Part shown: positions 3,648-18,881 of the stretch, in pieces
How positions within the stretch are numbered: position 1 is the stretch's first letter
Layout: each line of letters opens with the position of its first letter
Assembly: GCA_004377185.1 (NCBI GenBank)
Contig: SOIM01000059.1
Span: 100,325-120,324, forward strand
Reading direction: 5' to 3'
DNA length: 20,000 nt
Origin: Methanomassiliicoccales archaeon
Lineage (GTDB): Archaea > Thermoplasmatota > Thermoplasmata > RBG-16-68-12 > SOIM01
Notes under the pieces: generated by a model
What the model was told of the DNA's origin: nothing
Database searches by the model: none
What the model saw: the letters and a program-made list of their open reading frames with translations, nothing else
Made by a program: the position numbers and the translations under genes

Positions 3648-5125
<1,478 letters not shown>

Positions 5126-5126
<1 letters not shown>

Positions 5127-12956: not shown

Positions 12957-13010
12957 GGGGCAGGCAATGGAGAGACGACTAATAAACCTTCTCAATGTGC
13001 ATCTCAATAG

Positions 13011-13019
13011 TATTAAATA
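13011..13019. promoter_or_regulatory. Near-palindromic bidirectional TATA element
   Basis: GTATTAAATAC in the divergent region. It lies 28 nt from ATG 13043 (plus, leaderless spacing) and about 58 nt from ATG 12956 (minus, about 30-nt leader). Confidence 0.5.
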
Positions 13020-13042
13020 CGGACCCATTTCTAAGCAGAAAC

Positions 13043-13966
13043 ATGGAGATTCTCTCCCTCCTGAGGTTTCTGGTTGGTGGCATTTTCCTAGGCTTTGCCG
13101 CAATCTCTGATGTGAGGACAAGGAGGGTTCCGAACCGAGTGTGGATCCTTCTTGGTTTGGTTGGTTTCATCATCCTCGCGTGGGACCTGCAACAGAGATT
13201 CCAGACCAGTTGGGTACACTATCTCATCTTCATTCCGGCAGGGGTGCTTTTGTTTGAAGTGTACATTGACAGAGACCCGATCATTGATGACGAAGGATTC
13301 CATTTCGTTCCGTTGGCATTTCTCCTATACGGGCTCGCAGTGGTGGTCTTGATTGCACAGGTCTACTTGCTGTGGGGAAATCCAGAGCAGATGCATCTCT
13401 TCTATCAGTTACTGACCATACCTATCATGATAATTGTAGCTCATATTCTATATCAAACCGGTCTGTTGAGAGGGGGCGCGGACGCAAAAGCCCTGATGTC
13501 CCTGGCGGTATTGGTCCCCTTCTACCCGATGTTCTACGACTTTCCCCTTGTGAGTATGAATGCTGGTGTTGCGGATATTATGAGCATTGCGTTTCCATTC
13601 GCGCTGGTGATCTTGATGAACAGTGCCATCCTGATGATCTTCATTCCCTTGGTTTTCCTGGCAATAAACGCCAAGAGAAGGGATTTGGAGTTTCCGCAGT
13701 GCTTGGTCGGATATAAGGTGAAGCTGAATGAATTTCCGAGATTTGCTTGGCTGATGGAGAAAGTTGAGAATGGGAAGGTTCGAATTGTCCTCTTTCCCAG
13801 GAGGAGCGGGAACCAGAAAAGAGAGGTTCGAGTGCTTCTCGAAATGGGAAGAGACAAAGCCTGGGCGACCCCTCAGTTGCCTTTCATGGTTCCAATGTTC
13901 TTTGGATTCCTGATATCCTTCCTAGTGGGCAATCTGATAATGGGGCTAGTGTACTCGTTTGTATGA
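13043..13966 (+). CDS. Archaeal type IV prepilin/preflagellin peptidase-like aspartic protease (A24 family)
   Basis: Called from 12995, but the MEILSLLRFLVGG start at 13043 fits the TATA. Contains first Asp motif SDVRTRRVPN, second Asp motif GGADAKALM, and multiple TM helices. Confidence 0.85.
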   Translation: MEILSLLRFLVGGIFLGFAAISDVRTRRVPNRVWILLGLVGFIILAWDLQQRFQTSWVHYLIFIPAGVLLFEVYIDRDPIIDDEGFHFVPLAFLLYGLAVVVLIAQVYLLWGNPEQMHLFYQLLTIPIMIIVAHILYQTGLLRGGADAKALMSLAVLVPFYPMFYDFPLVSMNAGVADIMSIAFPFALVILMNSAILMIFIPLVFLAINAKRRDLEFPQCLVGYKVKLNEFPRFAWLMEKVENGKVRIVLFPRRSGNQKREVRVLLEMGRDKAWATPQLPFMVPMFFGFLISFLVGNLIMGLVYSFV

Positions 13967-14007
13967 TTTGCGCAACCTTCGATGCACGTGGATAACATCA
14001 AAAAATC

Positions 14008-14014
14008 TTTATAT
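14008..14014 (+). promoter_or_regulatory. TATA box of the 5S rRNA gene
   Basis: TTTATAT centred at 14011, about 27-30 nt upstream of the 5S rRNA 5' end. Confidence 0.65.
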
Positions 14015-14040
14015 CCAATTAGCCTTGGAACACATTGGTA

Positions 14041-14267
14041 TGACGGCCACAGCGGTGGGGATACACCTGGTCTCATCCCGAACCCAGAAGTGAAGCCCAC
14101 CTACGTTCTCTGCGGTACTGTGGTGCGCGAGCCCACGGGAAGTTTAGCCCCTTCGGGGGTCGTGGACCTCTGGCCTAGGTACGGGAGCTGGTTTCCAGCG
14201 GCTTCGGCCAACGGTTATCGGTAACCCGTGCTGCTTTAACGGCCTTCTGGTGCATGGAAAGCCGTCA
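14041..14267 (+). rRNA. rrf: 5S ribosomal RNA with a ~108-110 nt insertion
   Basis: The core matches archaeal 5S: CCACAGCGGTGGGGATACACCTGGTCTCATCCCGAACCCAGAAGTGAAGCCCACC...GGTACTGTGGTGCGCGAGCCCACGGGAAG. Terminal helix I TGACGGC (14041-14047) pairs with GCCGTCA (14261-14267). The 3' half is displaced by an extra structured segment. Confidence 0.93.
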
Positions 14268-14273
14268 GCCACC

Positions 14274-17200
14274 TCACTCTTCTTCCTCGTCTTTTCCATT
14301 GGTCCGGTCCTGCTTATATCTCCACACAAAGAAGATGGCGAAAACACTCACAATCGGAATGACGAATGTATCGAATTCTGGAACCCTAACCACCGTATAG
14401 TCACTGCTTTCCTCAAGCGGGTATTCGTTCACGGTGGTGTAGTTGAGAAATGCCCAATTCGTGAGATACACACCATCAGGGGCGGTGGCGTTAACGGTCA
14501 CGGTTATCGTGAACGAATGGATGCCAGGATCTACGTCATAGAAATGAAAGACATAGGTGAGGCCCAATTGAGACTCGTACGGAACACTAGAGGAGGTGAA
14601 GGTTGTGTATATCGGAATTGTATCGTTCACCCAGACATGGGCTGCAGTCCCGTTTCCGGTGTTGTTGTAGTAAATCGTGTAGGTGATGGGATCTCCAGGT
14701 CCGGCATCGGTCACATCCGCAATCTTGACAACCGCGATAACTGGCCTGACTATGACCATCGTCTTGTTAGCACTAGACCATTCCATTGGCTGTCTGAACA
14801 CATCTGTGTAGTTCAATTCCACGAAGTTGTTGAACTGTGTTCCATCAACAGTCCCATTATTGACCCGTACCGTGATAGTGAACGAGTTCTGCGTGTTTGG
14901 GGCAACATTGGTGAATTCCCAGTAGTAGGTGCTCCCGGAAAAGGACTGATAAGGTTCGCTGGAAGATACGTACGTAACTTCATCAGGAAGTGTGTCGTTT
15001 ATCCAAACGTCCTTGGAGATACCCCCGCCCGCGTTGTTGTAATAGACAGTATAGGTGAAGGTGTCACCCGGAGCAGCGGTGTTCTGGCTAGATGTCTTCT
15101 CCACCGTTATCCTTGGCCGGTGTCTCTCATTGTATTTGCCCTTCGTTGGGGAAGTGGAAACATACCAATCGTCCTTGTCAGCGTCCGTATCCTCAGGTTT
15201 GCCGTCCGTTGCGCCCTTGAATCGAGCCCAGCTCTCTCCGCTTTTGAGTCTAGGCAATTTCGTAGCATCCACCACTGTTCCCGTCGAGTCCACTAAACGG
15301 ACATCGACTGATTTGTCTTTTATCGAATTCGCGGGTAGGTCGAAGGCCAAATACTCACTCCCGCTCATCCAAGCCCCAATAGAAACGGCCCCAAACGTGT
15401 GGACCGTTTTCCATTTTCCCTTGTCCTTCACTTGAAACTCCCAATTGTCCAGATTGATTGCTGAAGATGTAGGGTTCGCCAGCTCGAACCACTCACCTGT
15501 ATTCCCTGGGGAGTAGATTTCGTTCAGGACGACATTGTCACCGGCAGGAGATCTGGTTCCGATAGCCTCGGCCCTCGAACGGCCTATGGCTTGGTCTGAG
15601 AGATCGGAGGCGGACTGCCAGTCCACAATGTGGAAGAGCGCGAAGAAGTCGGGCGCCAAGGGTTGGATGGAGGACACGGGAACAGATAGCTCCAATGTGT
15701 TGGTATCCAAGCTCACTTGACTGAGATTTTCCACAAGAACCCAGGGGATGTTTCCTCCGTTGTATTTGTATAGACCCTTCAAGAGAGGAACCCCATTCCT
15801 TCCGGAAATTGCTATGAGGTAATCCATCCCGTAGGTCTGACCACCGAAATCAACGGGCAAACCTGTGGAGGCGTTATCAGCATCCAAGAGTATCGAGATC
15901 TTGTCCACTCCCATCAATTCCGAGATAGAAATAGGACCGATGTAAACTGAGACATTCTTGTTCGCGTAGTCTGGATGGAAATCGGCTGGAATGGTTGTGT
16001 TCAGCCAATAGTCAGACCCTACCGGGTAGTCAATGATGTTGTCACCATCAACATCATGGTTGGTCAGTCTGTCCGGAGTCTCATCATTGTTGAAATCACG
16101 TGGATGCAGATCCATTTCATCCGGGACGGTATCCCGATCGCTGTCCATAACAGAAGGTCCTATGGTGGGCCTTTGCCTGAATGTCGGGATATCGATCCCT
16201 CCCAACATCCTTCCGTCAACTTTCATGTAGAATGAAGCTGTGATTCCAATCTCGAGAGCGTAGCTTCTAAGGTCAACATTCTCATTCATCAACGCACCGG
16301 TTTGACCTCCCACAACGTCGTTGTCAGCATCCATTCTTATCGAGCTTGAACCCCAATCACCGAAGGCTCCGTCAATCGTTATGGGTGGTGCGACATCACA
16401 GTACACTCTCGTAAGGGCAACATCCCGAAGAGACAGAGTCGCGTTCGAGACAAATCCACTAACGCTGAGACCTATGTACCGACCCGGTGGCACATCAGTG
16501 AAGACTGCTGTCACGATTAAAGTCAATCCTTCATCCACATCAATGTCCACATCCAGTACGGCCAAATCCGTGAAGAAGTTGCCTGAAGAGATCTGTTCAT
16601 CTGGCACGCTATTCGCATCGTAATCGACATACAGAATGAGATCCACTGAAGTATCCGGGACGTTTCCCGTCTTGGTGATATTGATTTGAGAGATGTGAGC
16701 TCTTCCGTTTGCAGCGTCCATGTCAAGCCTCAGGAAATGCACGGGACCACTGGTATCGACAATCTCTGGGGCAATGGTAGTCTGAACGACCTGAAGGACA
16801 TCCTTCTGAGGGCTGATGATTGCATCAGCGAAATCGCGGTTGCCAGAAAAGTCAGAAGTTGCCACGATGACTTTCGGTGTCCCCTCGGCCTTCACGCGGA
16901 AAAGGACTTCAAGCTCGCTGTCACCAATGGCCGTGGTTGCGGATCCAATCTTCCGGAAGCCGTTCCAGTCATTCCTGCGCACCGTTTCCCTGAATTCATA
17001 CATGGCACTCTGATGAACCGAGTTGTTCCACCCAAAGGCCTCAATGAGATAGTCCGAGCCGATTCCCCCAACGGGATACCCAGTGGACGGGTCATCATCA
17101 TGATCAACGAAGATGTAGATGGATTCGACCCCACTATTGCTCGAACCGTTGAGAATCGTGCCTTCCACCTCGGCATAAACGTACACCGTGTTCTTGTGCC

Positions 17201-18881
17201 CGTCTATCTTGTATGAGATAATGTTCACATCTGGGTTCCCAATCTGGTCCAGATCTGAATCGGAGAATGACCTGACACCCAGCCAGTCGTCGAAATTCCC
17301 GTCGATTGTGATTCTTGAGACATCTTCACTAGGGGCCATCATGCCGAAAATAAGTGGTGCAAGTATCAGAACAGACATTACAGCGGCGAGACCTCCCAAC
17401 GCTTTCGGCCATTGCGCATCCCTGGGCGTGAAGCGTGGCATATGCCTGGCAGCTCTTCCGTTAACAAGGCCGTTCCCGTTTATGAGGCCGTTGACTAAAC
17501 CGTTGACCCTACCTACCCCATTCACCAGACCGTTCACCAGTCCGTTTACGAGACCGTTGAGCCGGCCTATGCCATTGATCAGCCCGTTGACCCTTCCCAT
17601 GCCGTTAATCCGGCCGTTGACCCGGCCATTGACTCGACCGTTCACACGACCGTTGACCCGGCCGTTCACCATTCCGTTAACGAGGCCATTCGTTCTTCCC
17701 AACTTCTGGATGAGCCCCTTTCCCGAAGTCTTGCCTTCGAGGAGACCCATCTTCCTCAGACCCGCAAGGTCGTTTACCTCCTTGAGCCTCTCCTGCCTGG
17801 CGGACTCGATAGCCTTATCATAACTTGCCAGAGCTTCCTCGTGCTTGCCGATCTTGTCAAGAAGTTCTCCCCTTGTCTGCCAGGCCTGTTTGAGAGTCGG
17901 ATCCGCTCTGAGAAGTTCCTCGTAATGTTCAATCGTTCTCTCGATTTCTTCTTTCTCATCCACAAGGCGGGGTTCTTCCAGTTCAATGCCCGGGACCTCG
18001 AGGCCCTCCCTCTCTTTGACGATATTGAGGACTTCGAGCTTGTATTCCCCCTCCTTCTCGGGATCGAGCTCTGCCAGTCGGTCATAGCACTCGATTGCTT
18101 CGTCAAGTCTGCCCAACTCAATCAAAATGAAGGCTTTCTTCTTCCAGGCCCTCTCCAAAGTGGGATCTACTTCCAATAGACTTTCGTAATGTCGGAGTTC
18201 TTCCCCCAGCCTTTGTACGCCTATCCCTTCCTCCCTCTCACTGATTCGCTTCCATCTCTTGAGGAAATCCTTAGCCAGGGCCTTGTCTTCTCTTGGCTTC
18301 TTCTCTAGGACATGTTTCTCCAAGGCCCTCCTGAACTCTTCCTCTGGAGGGCCTTTGATATCCTTCTCCAGCTCTTCCAGTTGGTCCTCAAGCTGCTCGA
18401 CGAGTCTTTCGAAGTCTTCGTCCCTTTCTGGTTCTTCTTCGAAAGTGACTCCGCAATGGGGACATTTCCGGATGTCCTGTGCGATGAACCTACCACAAGC
18501 TGGGCACAGATACAAGGCTGGTTCTTCCTCTTCCTCCTCTTCTACAATCTCAGGCTCTGGAGCCAGCTCTTCCTCCGCTGGCACCTCTTCAAAAACAGCT
18601 CCGCAGACTTCGCATTTCTTGGCGGACTTGCTGATGAACGCACCGCATTCTGGACAAAGATAAAGAAAGGCTTCCTCTTCTTTTATCCGAGCAATCTCTT
18701 GGGCATAGTCCTTCAGGCGCTTCGCCAGTTCCTTGCCTATGCCTTCGACCTTTGCTATCTCCTCGATTTCTGCCTCACGCAGCGATTCTGGAGTGGTGAA
18801 ACCCGCTTCCTTCAGCCATTTGGCCCTCCGTGGGCCGACTCCAGGTATGAGAGAAATCCATTGGAGGAAGTCTTCTTCCAT
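14274..18881 (-). CDS. Giant multidomain membrane/surface protein: HhH, 2x zinc ribbon, TPR, NG-repeat, TM, 2x DOMON-like with Ca-binding-like region, LTD (lamin-tail-like), 2x DUF11, C-terminal TM
   Basis: 1535 aa. HhH (LIPGVGPRRAKWLKEAGF, VEGIGKELAKRL); CPECG...CEVCG and CPACG...CPHCG; TPR repeats; GRTNGLVNGMVNGRVNG...; TM ALGGLAAVMSVLILAPLIFGMM; ITIDGNFDDW and ITIDGAFGDW; DSDRDTVPDEMD; LNEIYSPGNTGEWFELANP; two YTVYYNNAG/YTIYYNNTG repeats; VPEFDTFVIPIVSVFAIFFVWRYKQ. Confidence 0.9.
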   Translation of the reverse strand: MEEDFLQWISLIPGVGPRRAKWLKEAGFTTPESLREAEIEEIAKVEGIGKELAKRLKDYAQEIARIKEEEAFLYLCPECGAFISKSAKKCEVCGAVFEEVPAEEELAPEPEIVEEEEEEEPALYLCPACGRFIAQDIRKCPHCGVTFEEEPERDEDFERLVEQLEDQLEELEKDIKGPPEEEFRRALEKHVLEKKPREDKALAKDFLKRWKRISEREEGIGVQRLGEELRHYESLLEVDPTLERAWKKKAFILIELGRLDEAIECYDRLAELDPEKEGEYKLEVLNIVKEREGLEVPGIELEEPRLVDEKEEIERTIEHYEELLRADPTLKQAWQTRGELLDKIGKHEEALASYDKAIESARQERLKEVNDLAGLRKMGLLEGKTSGKGLIQKLGRTNGLVNGMVNGRVNGRVNGRVNGRVNGRINGMGRVNGLINGIGRLNGLVNGLVNGLVNGVGRVNGLVNGLINGNGLVNGRAARHMPRFTPRDAQWPKALGGLAAVMSVLILAPLIFGMMAPSEDVSRITIDGNFDDWLGVRSFSDSDLDQIGNPDVNIISYKIDGHKNTVYVYAEVEGTILNGSSNSGVESIYIFVDHDDDPSTGYPVGGIGSDYLIEAFGWNNSVHQSAMYEFRETVRRNDWNGFRKIGSATTAIGDSELEVLFRVKAEGTPKVIVATSDFSGNRDFADAIISPQKDVLQVVQTTIAPEIVDTSGPVHFLRLDMDAANGRAHISQINITKTGNVPDTSVDLILYVDYDANSVPDEQISSGNFFTDLAVLDVDIDVDEGLTLIVTAVFTDVPPGRYIGLSVSGFVSNATLSLRDVALTRVYCDVAPPITIDGAFGDWGSSSIRMDADNDVVGGQTGALMNENVDLRSYALEIGITASFYMKVDGRMLGGIDIPTFRQRPTIGPSVMDSDRDTVPDEMDLHPRDFNNDETPDRLTNHDVDGDNIIDYPVGSDYWLNTTIPADFHPDYANKNVSVYIGPISISELMGVDKISILLDADNASTGLPVDFGGQTYGMDYLIAISGRNGVPLLKGLYKYNGGNIPWVLVENLSQVSLDTNTLELSVPVSSIQPLAPDFFALFHIVDWQSASDLSDQAIGRSRAEAIGTRSPAGDNVVLNEIYSPGNTGEWFELANPTSSAINLDNWEFQVKDKGKWKTVHTFGAVSIGAWMSGSEYLAFDLPANSIKDKSVDVRLVDSTGTVVDATKLPRLKSGESWARFKGATDGKPEDTDADKDDWYVSTSPTKGKYNERHRPRITVEKTSSQNTAAPGDTFTYTVYYNNAGGGISKDVWINDTLPDEVTYVSSSEPYQSFSGSTYYWEFTNVAPNTQNSFTITVRVNNGTVDGTQFNNFVELNYTDVFRQPMEWSSANKTMVIVRPVIAVVKIADVTDAGPGDPITYTIYYNNTGNGTAAHVWVNDTIPIYTTFTSSSVPYESQLGLTYVFHFYDVDPGIHSFTITVTVNATAPDGVYLTNWAFLNYTTVNEYPLEESSDYTVVRVPEFDTFVIPIVSVFAIFFVWRYKQDRTNGKDEEEE
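17458..17697 (-). repeat. In-frame 12-bp-period tandem repeat encoding (N-G-x-x)n
   Basis: The + strand shows imperfect units such as ccgttgacccgg / ccgttcacacga / ccgttgagccgg. The translation has 19 NG dipeptides in about 80 aa, with xGRxNG spacers. Confidence 0.9.

Follow-up and report, generated by a model that had tools for sequence, protein, structure and literature searches.

Genomic context and extent of the 5S rRNA gene

The stretch of DNA that was analysed (20,000 nt, in the following termed the window) is archaeal and encodes the RNA polymerase proteins A' and A'', an L7Ae-like protein, a NusA-like KH protein and an rRNA dimethylase. A gene for an A24 peptidase is located at positions 12995-13966, and directly downstream of it lies a 5S rRNA gene, which according to Rfam is the sole RNA gene; no other rRNA or tRNA genes were found in the window. 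The A24 peptidase is 100% identical to an NCBI protein labelled 'MAG: Methanomassiliicoccales archaeon', which supports the original prediction that the DNA comes from a Thermoplasmata-like lineage.

Counted with Rfam-equivalent ends, the 5S rRNA gene spans positions 14039-14269 on the + strand and comprises 231 nt, which is nearly twice the normal length. Searching the locus with the Rfam 5S model RF00001 gave a match that assigns the gene to this family (69.7 bits, E = 3.8e-13, threshold 38), but the match covers only positions 14039-14158 (120 nt), and its 3' end is misplaced inside an insert: the last 20 positions are forced onto AGC-CCCUUCGGGG, and the terminal helix formed in this way is non-canonical with several non-standard pairs. 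The true terminal helix I consists of UGACGGC (14041-14047) and GCCGUCA (14261-14267), which are complementary at seven of seven positions with Watson-Crick pairs. It is present in the minimum-energy fold of positions 14039-14270, closes the three-way junction, and its pairing is kept in 30 of 30 relatives with a change on both sides at one pair. The 5' part of the 5S core (14039-14143, + strand), which was delimited by RF00001, pair mapping and compensatory changes, takes in the 5' strand of helix I, helices II, III and IV, loops C and E, the 5' strand of helix V and the inner helix V pairs. Loop C (CCCGAAC), loop E (GUA opposite GAA) and helices II-IV are all present in the window as judged by sequence and alignment, and helices II, III, IV and the inner part of helix V show compensatory changes across the relatives. 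The 3' part of the core (14256-14269, + strand) contributes GGAA (14256-14259) to outer helix V besides the 3' strand of helix I. Thus, the core and the terminal helix are intact as had been predicted, and the structured insertion of about 110 nt was confirmed at approximately positions 14144-14255, with the motifs that had served to place it at the positions originally read: GGGAAG ends at 14142, and CATGGAA and TTCTCTG occupy 14253-14259 and 14106-14112, respectively. Two mechanically called open reading frames on the + strand, 13982-14224 and 14250-15296, overlap the 5S rRNA gene and are regarded as spurious, because the conservation pattern with its compensatory changes is that of a structured RNA.

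Upstream of the gene, a purine-rich stretch is followed by the TATA-like box TTTATAT (14008-14014), which is located approximately 26-28 nt upstream of the RNA start in the window, and each of the 31 related loci has an A/T-rich box behind a run of purines, about 28-34 nt upstream of the gene. Therefore, positions 14000-14016 (+ strand) can be assumed to act as an archaeal promoter. The whole transcription unit (14035-14273, + strand), defined by covariation of the flanking stem and by the match to the covariance model R1 described below, includes a short basal stem outside the Rfam ends, in which UUGG (14035-14038) pairs with CCAC (14269-14272). This stem covaries between the groups of related genes, with (G/U)UGG/CCAC, AGUGG/CCACU and GGGAAGGG/CCCUUCCC (window and flanks of L001-L089). 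The basal stem begins on its 5' side where the TATA-like box predicts transcription to start. Judged by archaeal promoter spacing, the RNA therefore probably exceeds 231 nt by a few nucleotides and runs through the covarying stem, the ends of the mature 5S RNA being uncertain by about 4 nt. The basal stem may be an extension of helix I in the mature RNA or a processing stem. Downstream of the gene, the pyrimidine- and T-rich tract CTCTTCTTCCTCGTCTTTTC (14277-14296, + strand) likely acts as transcription stop, and the open reading frame 14274-18881 on the minus strand reaches into this tract with its 3' end. Similar T-rich tracts occur downstream of the 5S rRNA gene in related loci. With its own TATA promoter the 5S rRNA gene stands alone and is unlinked to 16S or 23S rRNA genes.

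Architecture of the expansion segment

The expansion segment (14144-14255, + strand) splits helix V in its 3' strand, immediately behind loop E. Its boundaries follow from the inner helix V pairs G14112-U14143 and C14113-G14142, since these flank loop E; in place of G14112-U14143, most relatives have G-C and two have C-G. The insert-only covariance model R2 matches positions 14144-14249. Outer helix V is formed by UUCU (14106-14109) and GGAA (14256-14259) in the window and by GUUCC/GGAAC in most relatives. Originally, the entire CATGGAA had been proposed to pair with TTCTCTG as helix V. This holds for GGAA, which pairs with UUCU, but CAUG (14253-14256) more likely pairs with CGUG (14161-14164) of the insert at the base of its arm, because this pairing covaries (UGGG/UCCA, GGUG/UGCC) while the CUG on the 5' side stays constant. 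As G14256 is claimed by both pairings, the register of the junction is uncertain by about 1 nt.

The segment starts with the short hairpin iA, GCCCC-UUCG-GGGGU (14147-14160, + strand), which is part of the minimum-energy fold and shows changes on both sides at six of seven pairs. It is followed by the long arm iB. The 5' strand of the arm base with CGUG, ACC and GGCC (14161-14175, + strand) pairs with positions 14241-14256, and seven of its eleven pairs are changed on both sides. The conserved 5' motif CCUAGGUACG (14174-14183, + strand), which is nearly invariant in the alignment of 31 sequences, takes in helix iB3, the 2-nt loop side UA and helix iB4. On the opposite side, the conserved 3' motif CGUGCU-GCUUUAAC-GGCC (14227-14244, + strand) is the most conserved stretch of the insert and consists of the 3' strand of iB4, the 8-nt side of the internal loop and the 3' strand of iB3. 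Together, both motifs form a conserved asymmetric 2x8 internal loop, with UA (14176-14177) opposite GCUUUAAC (14233-14240), next to the 6-bp helix iB4 of GGUACG (14178-14183) and CGUGCU (14227-14232). The apical part of arm iB (14184-14226, + strand) is variable and ends with GGC-UUCG-GCC (14200-14209) in the window; its length and sequence depend on the group and its pairing is kept. As derived from per-group folds and manual comparison, hairpin iA, arm iB and the two halves of helix V meet in a four-way junction. A consensus fold by RNAalifold on the MAFFT alignment A2 was discarded, as it was poor and the variable arm was misaligned; per-group folds and model-based realignment were used instead.

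The proposed structure was combined with fifteen genes from other species, all of one group of relatives (group C, see below), in the covariance model R1, in which the window took no part. R1 finds all other genes in full length, among them the gene of the window, which is aligned end to end (14039-14269, 151.9 bits, E = 5e-43). In the resulting alignment of 30 sequences, 94.4% of the cells hold standard pairs, and 29 of 67 pairs are changed on both sides compared with 16.4 ± 1.9 after column shuffling and 8-11 with slid partners, whereby these pair counts come from an alignment fitted to the structure and hence favour that structure. The covariation signal resides largely in the helices of the insert, i.e. 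besides iA (6/7) and the arm base (7/11) also in the tip (6/7). Moreover, compensatory changes are visible in the raw sequences as well, for example in the apex of the arm, where CUGGU/AUCGG is replaced by CUCAC/GUGAG in L005.

A side observation concerns the motif (C)UUUAACGGCC (14233-14244), which resembles the 5' end of the 5S RNA, UUUGACGGCC (14039-14048; groups C and D), at nine of ten positions, a similarity that is not significant compared with shuffles. This motif could pair with the 3' strand of helix I as an alternative.

Conservation among Thermoplasmata

Related loci were fetched via homologues of the A24 peptidase, and a one-genome-per-species scan with a peptidase alignment added 80 loci. 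With the window left aside, a search that used only the 5S core detected a 5S rRNA gene in 31 loci, of which one is a re-fetch of a region already included. The order of the peptidase gene followed by the 5S rRNA gene is kept in the loci fetched via peptidase homologues, and all 31 of the 31 syntenic 5S rRNA genes carry extra RNA at the same aligned site. Conservation in related genomes, which the original prediction had suggested to look for, is thus evident in position and also in size, the total length being 216-234 nt with the exception of a single gene of 170 nt. Group A contains the gene of the window and six others of 231 nt as well as the 170-nt gene (L004), group B three genes of 234 nt, group C fifteen genes of 219-222 nt, which originate according to the names of the metagenome-assembled genomes (MAGs) mostly from soil and groundwater, and group D five genes of 216-230 nt. 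Over all carriers, the MAG names refer to soil, groundwater, soda-lake sediment and other sediments.

This distribution bears on the quality of the assembly. The window comes from a metagenome-assembled genome, and in one related record (CP070767.1) a run of N directly follows the gene, so one might think of the insert as an assembly chimera. However, the same insert occupies the same site in 31 further assemblies (one being the re-fetch) deposited at NCBI, ENA and JGI from different studies and habitats, and the sequences differ from each other by compensatory substitutions. Since the insert recurs across independent assemblies in which the neighbouring peptidase is as little as 33% identical, a chimera, which had been named as an observation that would overturn the original prediction, is excluded and we give it practically no weight. 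The run of 100 N in CP070767.1 (L001, 11251-11350) begins about 20 nt downstream of the expanded 5S rRNA gene in a MAG whose record is that of a chromosome. On the far side of the N run follows a gene other than the syntenic neighbour found elsewhere, which suggests a scaffolding join, possibly because of a repeat.

The 170-nt gene of L004 (3994-4163) belongs to a close relative of the window, in which about 60 nt of the insert are lost and only about 50 nt remain. This mini-insert lacks hairpin iA and the entire 5' half of the arm but still contains GCUUUAACGGCC, the conserved motif of the 3' side, for which a GGCC of the former tip could take over as pairing partner. Therefore, the full segment is not indispensable everywhere. 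Of the five contigs on which the protein next to this gene occurs, one was read.

The partial deletion in L004 could also be taken as a sign of a 5S copy that is silent or degenerating, with a normal 5S rRNA gene elsewhere supplying the ribosome. Two unlinked 5S rRNA genes are common in Methanomassiliicoccales (PMC10673518), and for some bacterial genomes Stepanov and Fox described expanded and normal 5S rRNA genes side by side (PMC7812874). However, a silent gene would decay, whereas core, promoter box and insert are all conserved with compensatory changes although the neighbouring proteins are only 33-40% identical across the lineages. Furthermore, a pattern scan of metagenomes, which was run without a positive control, for an insert-less 5S rRNA gene with the core and 3' end of this lineage yielded 95 matches, all of them chance matches in GC-rich coding DNA and none a 5S rRNA gene. 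A silent locus is unlikely because the promoter is conserved and core and insert evolve in a compensatory manner, and that the ribosome is supplied from elsewhere is in our view very improbable.

Group D (L059, L071, L085, L044, L076) differs in its neighbourhood, as a gene for an H+/Na+-pyrophosphatase is located between the peptidase and the 5S rRNA gene. Beyond a handful of Thermoplasmata, the closest relatives of this pyrophosphatase are Chloroflexota proteins with 60-65% identity, which hints at gene transfer. Searching with it for the 5S rRNA gene of cultured Methanomassiliicoccales or of an outgroup led only to a few more MAGs and then to Chloroflexota.

Introns, duplications and mobile elements

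Introns in archaeal rRNA and intervening sequences in bacterial rRNA exist, and so there is precedent for extra RNA that is removed after transcription, be it by splicing or by cutting without religation. Deleting approximately positions 14144-14252 would leave an RNA of about 120 nt with a continuous helix V (seven of nine pairs in the window, eight of nine in group C), and processing could take place at the basal stem of the arm. Archaeal rRNA introns with a bulge-helix-bulge motif are comparable to the insert insofar as they also are extra sequence within an archaeal rRNA gene. However, a permissive scan at the boundaries of the insert for this motif, in which a 4-bp helix separates two bulges of 3 nt each, gave candidates in 3 of 31 sequences, none of them conserved across the 31 and none in the window, compared with 4-15% per sequence in shuffles. 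The candidates are thus at chance level, and the reading as an archaeal intron was rejected. Moreover, the interior of the insert is conserved as structure, in loops as well as in helices, which is unexpected for such introns and far exceeds what excision needs. The closest counterpart, the insert of Halococcus, is kept in the mature 5S RNA and has been seen on the ribosome (PMC7812874, PMC7530397). Taken together, removal of the segment is quite unlikely.

Also other origins of the insert were considered. A duplicate of the 5S core was rejected, as local alignment of insert and core is no better than with shuffles (z -1.2 to +0.5), and an Rfam search of positions 14138-14262 by E-value returned no meaningful family match in the insert. 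The two-block pattern of the conserved insert motifs is absent from viral contigs and occurs in all fetched loci inside 5S rRNA genes only, and a mobile or viral origin was rejected on these grounds.

Comparison with the expanded 5S rRNA of Halococcus

The classical case of an expanded archaeal 5S rRNA was reportedly described by Luehrsen et al. in 1981 for Halococcus, with an insert of 108 nt. According to Stepanov and Fox (2021), archaeal expanded 5S rRNAs are known only from Halobacteriales, namely from Halococcus, Halalkalicoccus, Halomarina and Halodesulfurarchaeum, where 108 nt are inserted between core positions 104.1 and 105 (PMC7812874). Their screens were based on RefSeq annotations and BLAST (PMC7812874), and MAGs as well as divergent inserts would be missed because of this. 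They also noted that annotation truncates the haloarchaeal genes (PMC7812874), as Rfam does with the gene of the window. The 231-nt RNA of Halococcus was sequenced directly (PMC7812874, PMC7530397), and the insert of Halococcus morrhuae is retained in the mature ribosomal 5S RNA (PMC7812874, PMC7530397). By cryo-EM this insert leaves the 5S core via a four-way junction, its secondary structure having been left open (Tirumalai et al. 2020, PMC7530397). In the literature that was searched, a 5S expansion in Thermoplasmata was not found, and the archaeal cases were confined to a few haloarchaeal genera.

When a plasmid collection was searched by BLAST with the gene of the window, two plasmids of one Halococcus dombrowskii strain with rRNA operons were found, NZ_CP095007.1 (L185) and NZ_CP095009.1 (L186). 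In both, the end of the operon contains an expanded 5S rRNA gene (396-624, 229 nt), for which the plasmid gene table holds no feature and of which Rfam calls only 396-514. Model R1, which was built from Thermoplasmata only, aligns the H. dombrowskii 5S rRNA end to end with 108.3 bits, whereas insert-less haloarchaeal 5S rRNAs score 67-89. Moreover, the match of the insert-only model R2 coincides exactly with the Halococcus insert of 108 nt (L185, 501-608). It covers all 102 model positions and scores 22.9 bits, as much as the insert of the window itself; the corresponding E-values, 0.012 for a search of 187 kb and 2.6e-4 for one of 3.9 kb, are rough. Insert-less controls gave nothing comparable to this match with R2. 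In an independent fold of the Halococcus RNA, a short hairpin likewise comes first and then an arm that contains a 2x8 loop, here of CA opposite GUUACAAC, and the counterparts of the conserved motifs are CCCAGGAGCG on the 5' side and CGCUCC-GUUACAAC-GGCU on the 3' side. The adjacent 6-bp helix, GGAGCG/CGCUCC in Halococcus and GGUACG/CGUGCC in Thermoplasmata, differs by compensatory changes, and 25 of 32 insert pairs are standard pairs in Halococcus. The sequence comparison on the haloarchaeal side refers to one species, H. dombrowskii.

These data support the likeness to the 108-nt insertion of Halococcus that had been proposed originally and make it closer than assumed there, as aligned position, size and predicted architecture are the same and models trained on Thermoplasmata recognise the H. 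dombrowskii insert. In Halococcus and Halalkalicoccus, too, the insert interrupts helix V on its 3' strand, immediately behind loop E (core 104.1/105), and in the model alignment the inserts of Halococcus and Thermoplasmata occupy the same columns, with ..GGGAAnnCUG preceding and UGG.. following them. The sizes are alike with 108 nt compared with 99-114 nt in Thermoplasmata for the insert and 229-231 nt compared with 216-234 nt for the whole RNA. As far as the folds are predicted, both types share the four-way junction and the order of a 5' hairpin and a long arm, in which a 6-bp helix flanks the 2x8 loop with the common consensus YA opposite GYUNYAAC, followed by the GG of iB3. In both, the 3' end called by Rfam is false and lies inside the insert. 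Differences exist in the host, which is affiliated with Thermoplasmata and not with Halobacteria and thus with another phylum, and the carriers described here are not restricted to hypersaline isolates. Furthermore, the expanded 5S rRNA gene of Halococcus ends an rRNA operon, whereas the Thermoplasmata gene stands alone with its own promoter, and retention in the mature RNA is shown for Halococcus and predicted for the Thermoplasmata segment. Primary similarity between the inserts is low and the tips of the arms are unrelated.

The latter raises the question whether a retained segment arose in Thermoplasmata independently of the Halococcus insert, so that the likeness merely reflects what the ribosome surface tolerates at this place. 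The Halococcus insert escapes detection by a sequence-only profile HMM of its Thermoplasmata counterparts, the identity in the aligned insert columns is 42-51% compared with 60-68% among the Thermoplasmata groups, the apical parts of the arms cannot be related to each other, and the score of 22.9 bits is modest. The insert has diverged in proportion to the core, in which Halococcus shows 67-72% identity compared with 86-91% among the Thermoplasmata groups. Against independent origin, the insertion point is identical to the nucleotide under the model alignment, both inserts combine a 5' hairpin with an arm that carries the YA/GYUNYAAC loop and then the GG of iB3, the flanking 6-bp helix has changed in a compensatory way, and the Halococcus insert scores as well on the model of group C as the insert of the window does. 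We therefore state with high confidence that the inserts of Thermoplasmata and Halococcus are of the same structural type and with moderate confidence that they are of common descent; an independent origin is unlikely.

Expansion segments of 13 to 109 nt are known overall, and in bacteria they occur in Thermoanaerobacterales, Clostridiales, Halanaerobiales and Alteromonadales (PMC7812874). Like the segment described here, they are taxon-specific, internally paired, often missed by annotation and leave the 5S core intact, but they are located at other sites, such as a bulge in helix III, and often occur beside normal copies in one genome (PMC7812874). No sequence or structural relation between them and the Thermoplasmata insert was seen. 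A further haloarchaeal candidate, an apparent 190-nt expanded 5S rRNA on a plasmid of Natronorubrum, was rejected, as it represents two normal 5S rRNA genes in tandem. In this plasmid (N. bangense, NZ_CP031309.1, L187) the genes of normal length are located at 100-221 and 296-417, 74 nt apart, and the record contains four matching places.

A putative extra arm on the ribosome

Altogether, it is most likely, with a probability of roughly 0.7, that the locus is a functional 5S rRNA gene of Thermoplasmata with an expansion segment of the Halococcus type, which is probably homologous to the Halococcus insert and most likely kept in the mature RNA. The 5S core would then fold normally and undisturbed by the segment, which would fold on its own into the short hairpin and the long arm at the four-way junction with the halves of helix V. 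By analogy with Halococcus, the segment most likely stays in a mature 5S RNA of about 231-239 nt. There it would stand out from the ribosome surface as an additional arm, on that side of the central protuberance where helix V lies, and the conserved 2x8 loop would be the likeliest contact point for a ribosomal or other partner, while the variable tip would be free. The long-term conservation across a deep clade argues that the segment is not neutral, even if it can be reduced as in L004. 

Since the segment is diverse in Thermoplasmata and confined to few genera in haloarchaea, an old Thermoplasmata feature that was transferred to haloarchaea would fit the pattern. One may go further and imagine an old module of a broad Thermoplasmata clade that reached Halococcus and a few other haloarchaea by transfer between phyla and whose 2x8 loop docks a specific partner on the central protuberance, which we put forward as a tentative idea that is rather doubtful as a whole. 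If this is true, it would be the first demonstration that an rRNA expansion segment can pass from one archaeal phylum to another, and the segment would be under selection for a function.

With the expanded 5S rRNA genes of Thermoplasmata, a known type of feature is newly found in a phylogenetically distant lineage and with a much wider occurrence. The Halococcus insert has been a textbook oddity of prokaryotic rRNA, nearly doubling the length of an rRNA, and its secondary structure, origin and function are open questions (PMC7530397). The inserts described here supply the sequence diversity to derive the fold by covariation, i.e. hairpin and arm, 2x8 loop and four-way junction, and they point to a segment under long-term selection in a large lineage of ordinary, non-hypersaline habitats. 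Moreover, transfer between phyla or ancient origin becomes a testable question. As Rfam/Infernal reports a truncated 5S rRNA of 120 nt for all Thermoplasmata cases, the feature is invisible in current genome records.

Apart from the 5S rRNA gene, the RNA polymerase A'' protein of the window (3648-5126) comprises 492 amino acids, and its orthologue has 502 amino acids in L002 and is called with 309 amino acids in L001. The match to the Pfam domain RNA_pol_Rpb1_5 covers only about 200 profile positions but extends over residues 74-432, which suggests that A'' carries an insertion of roughly 160 residues.
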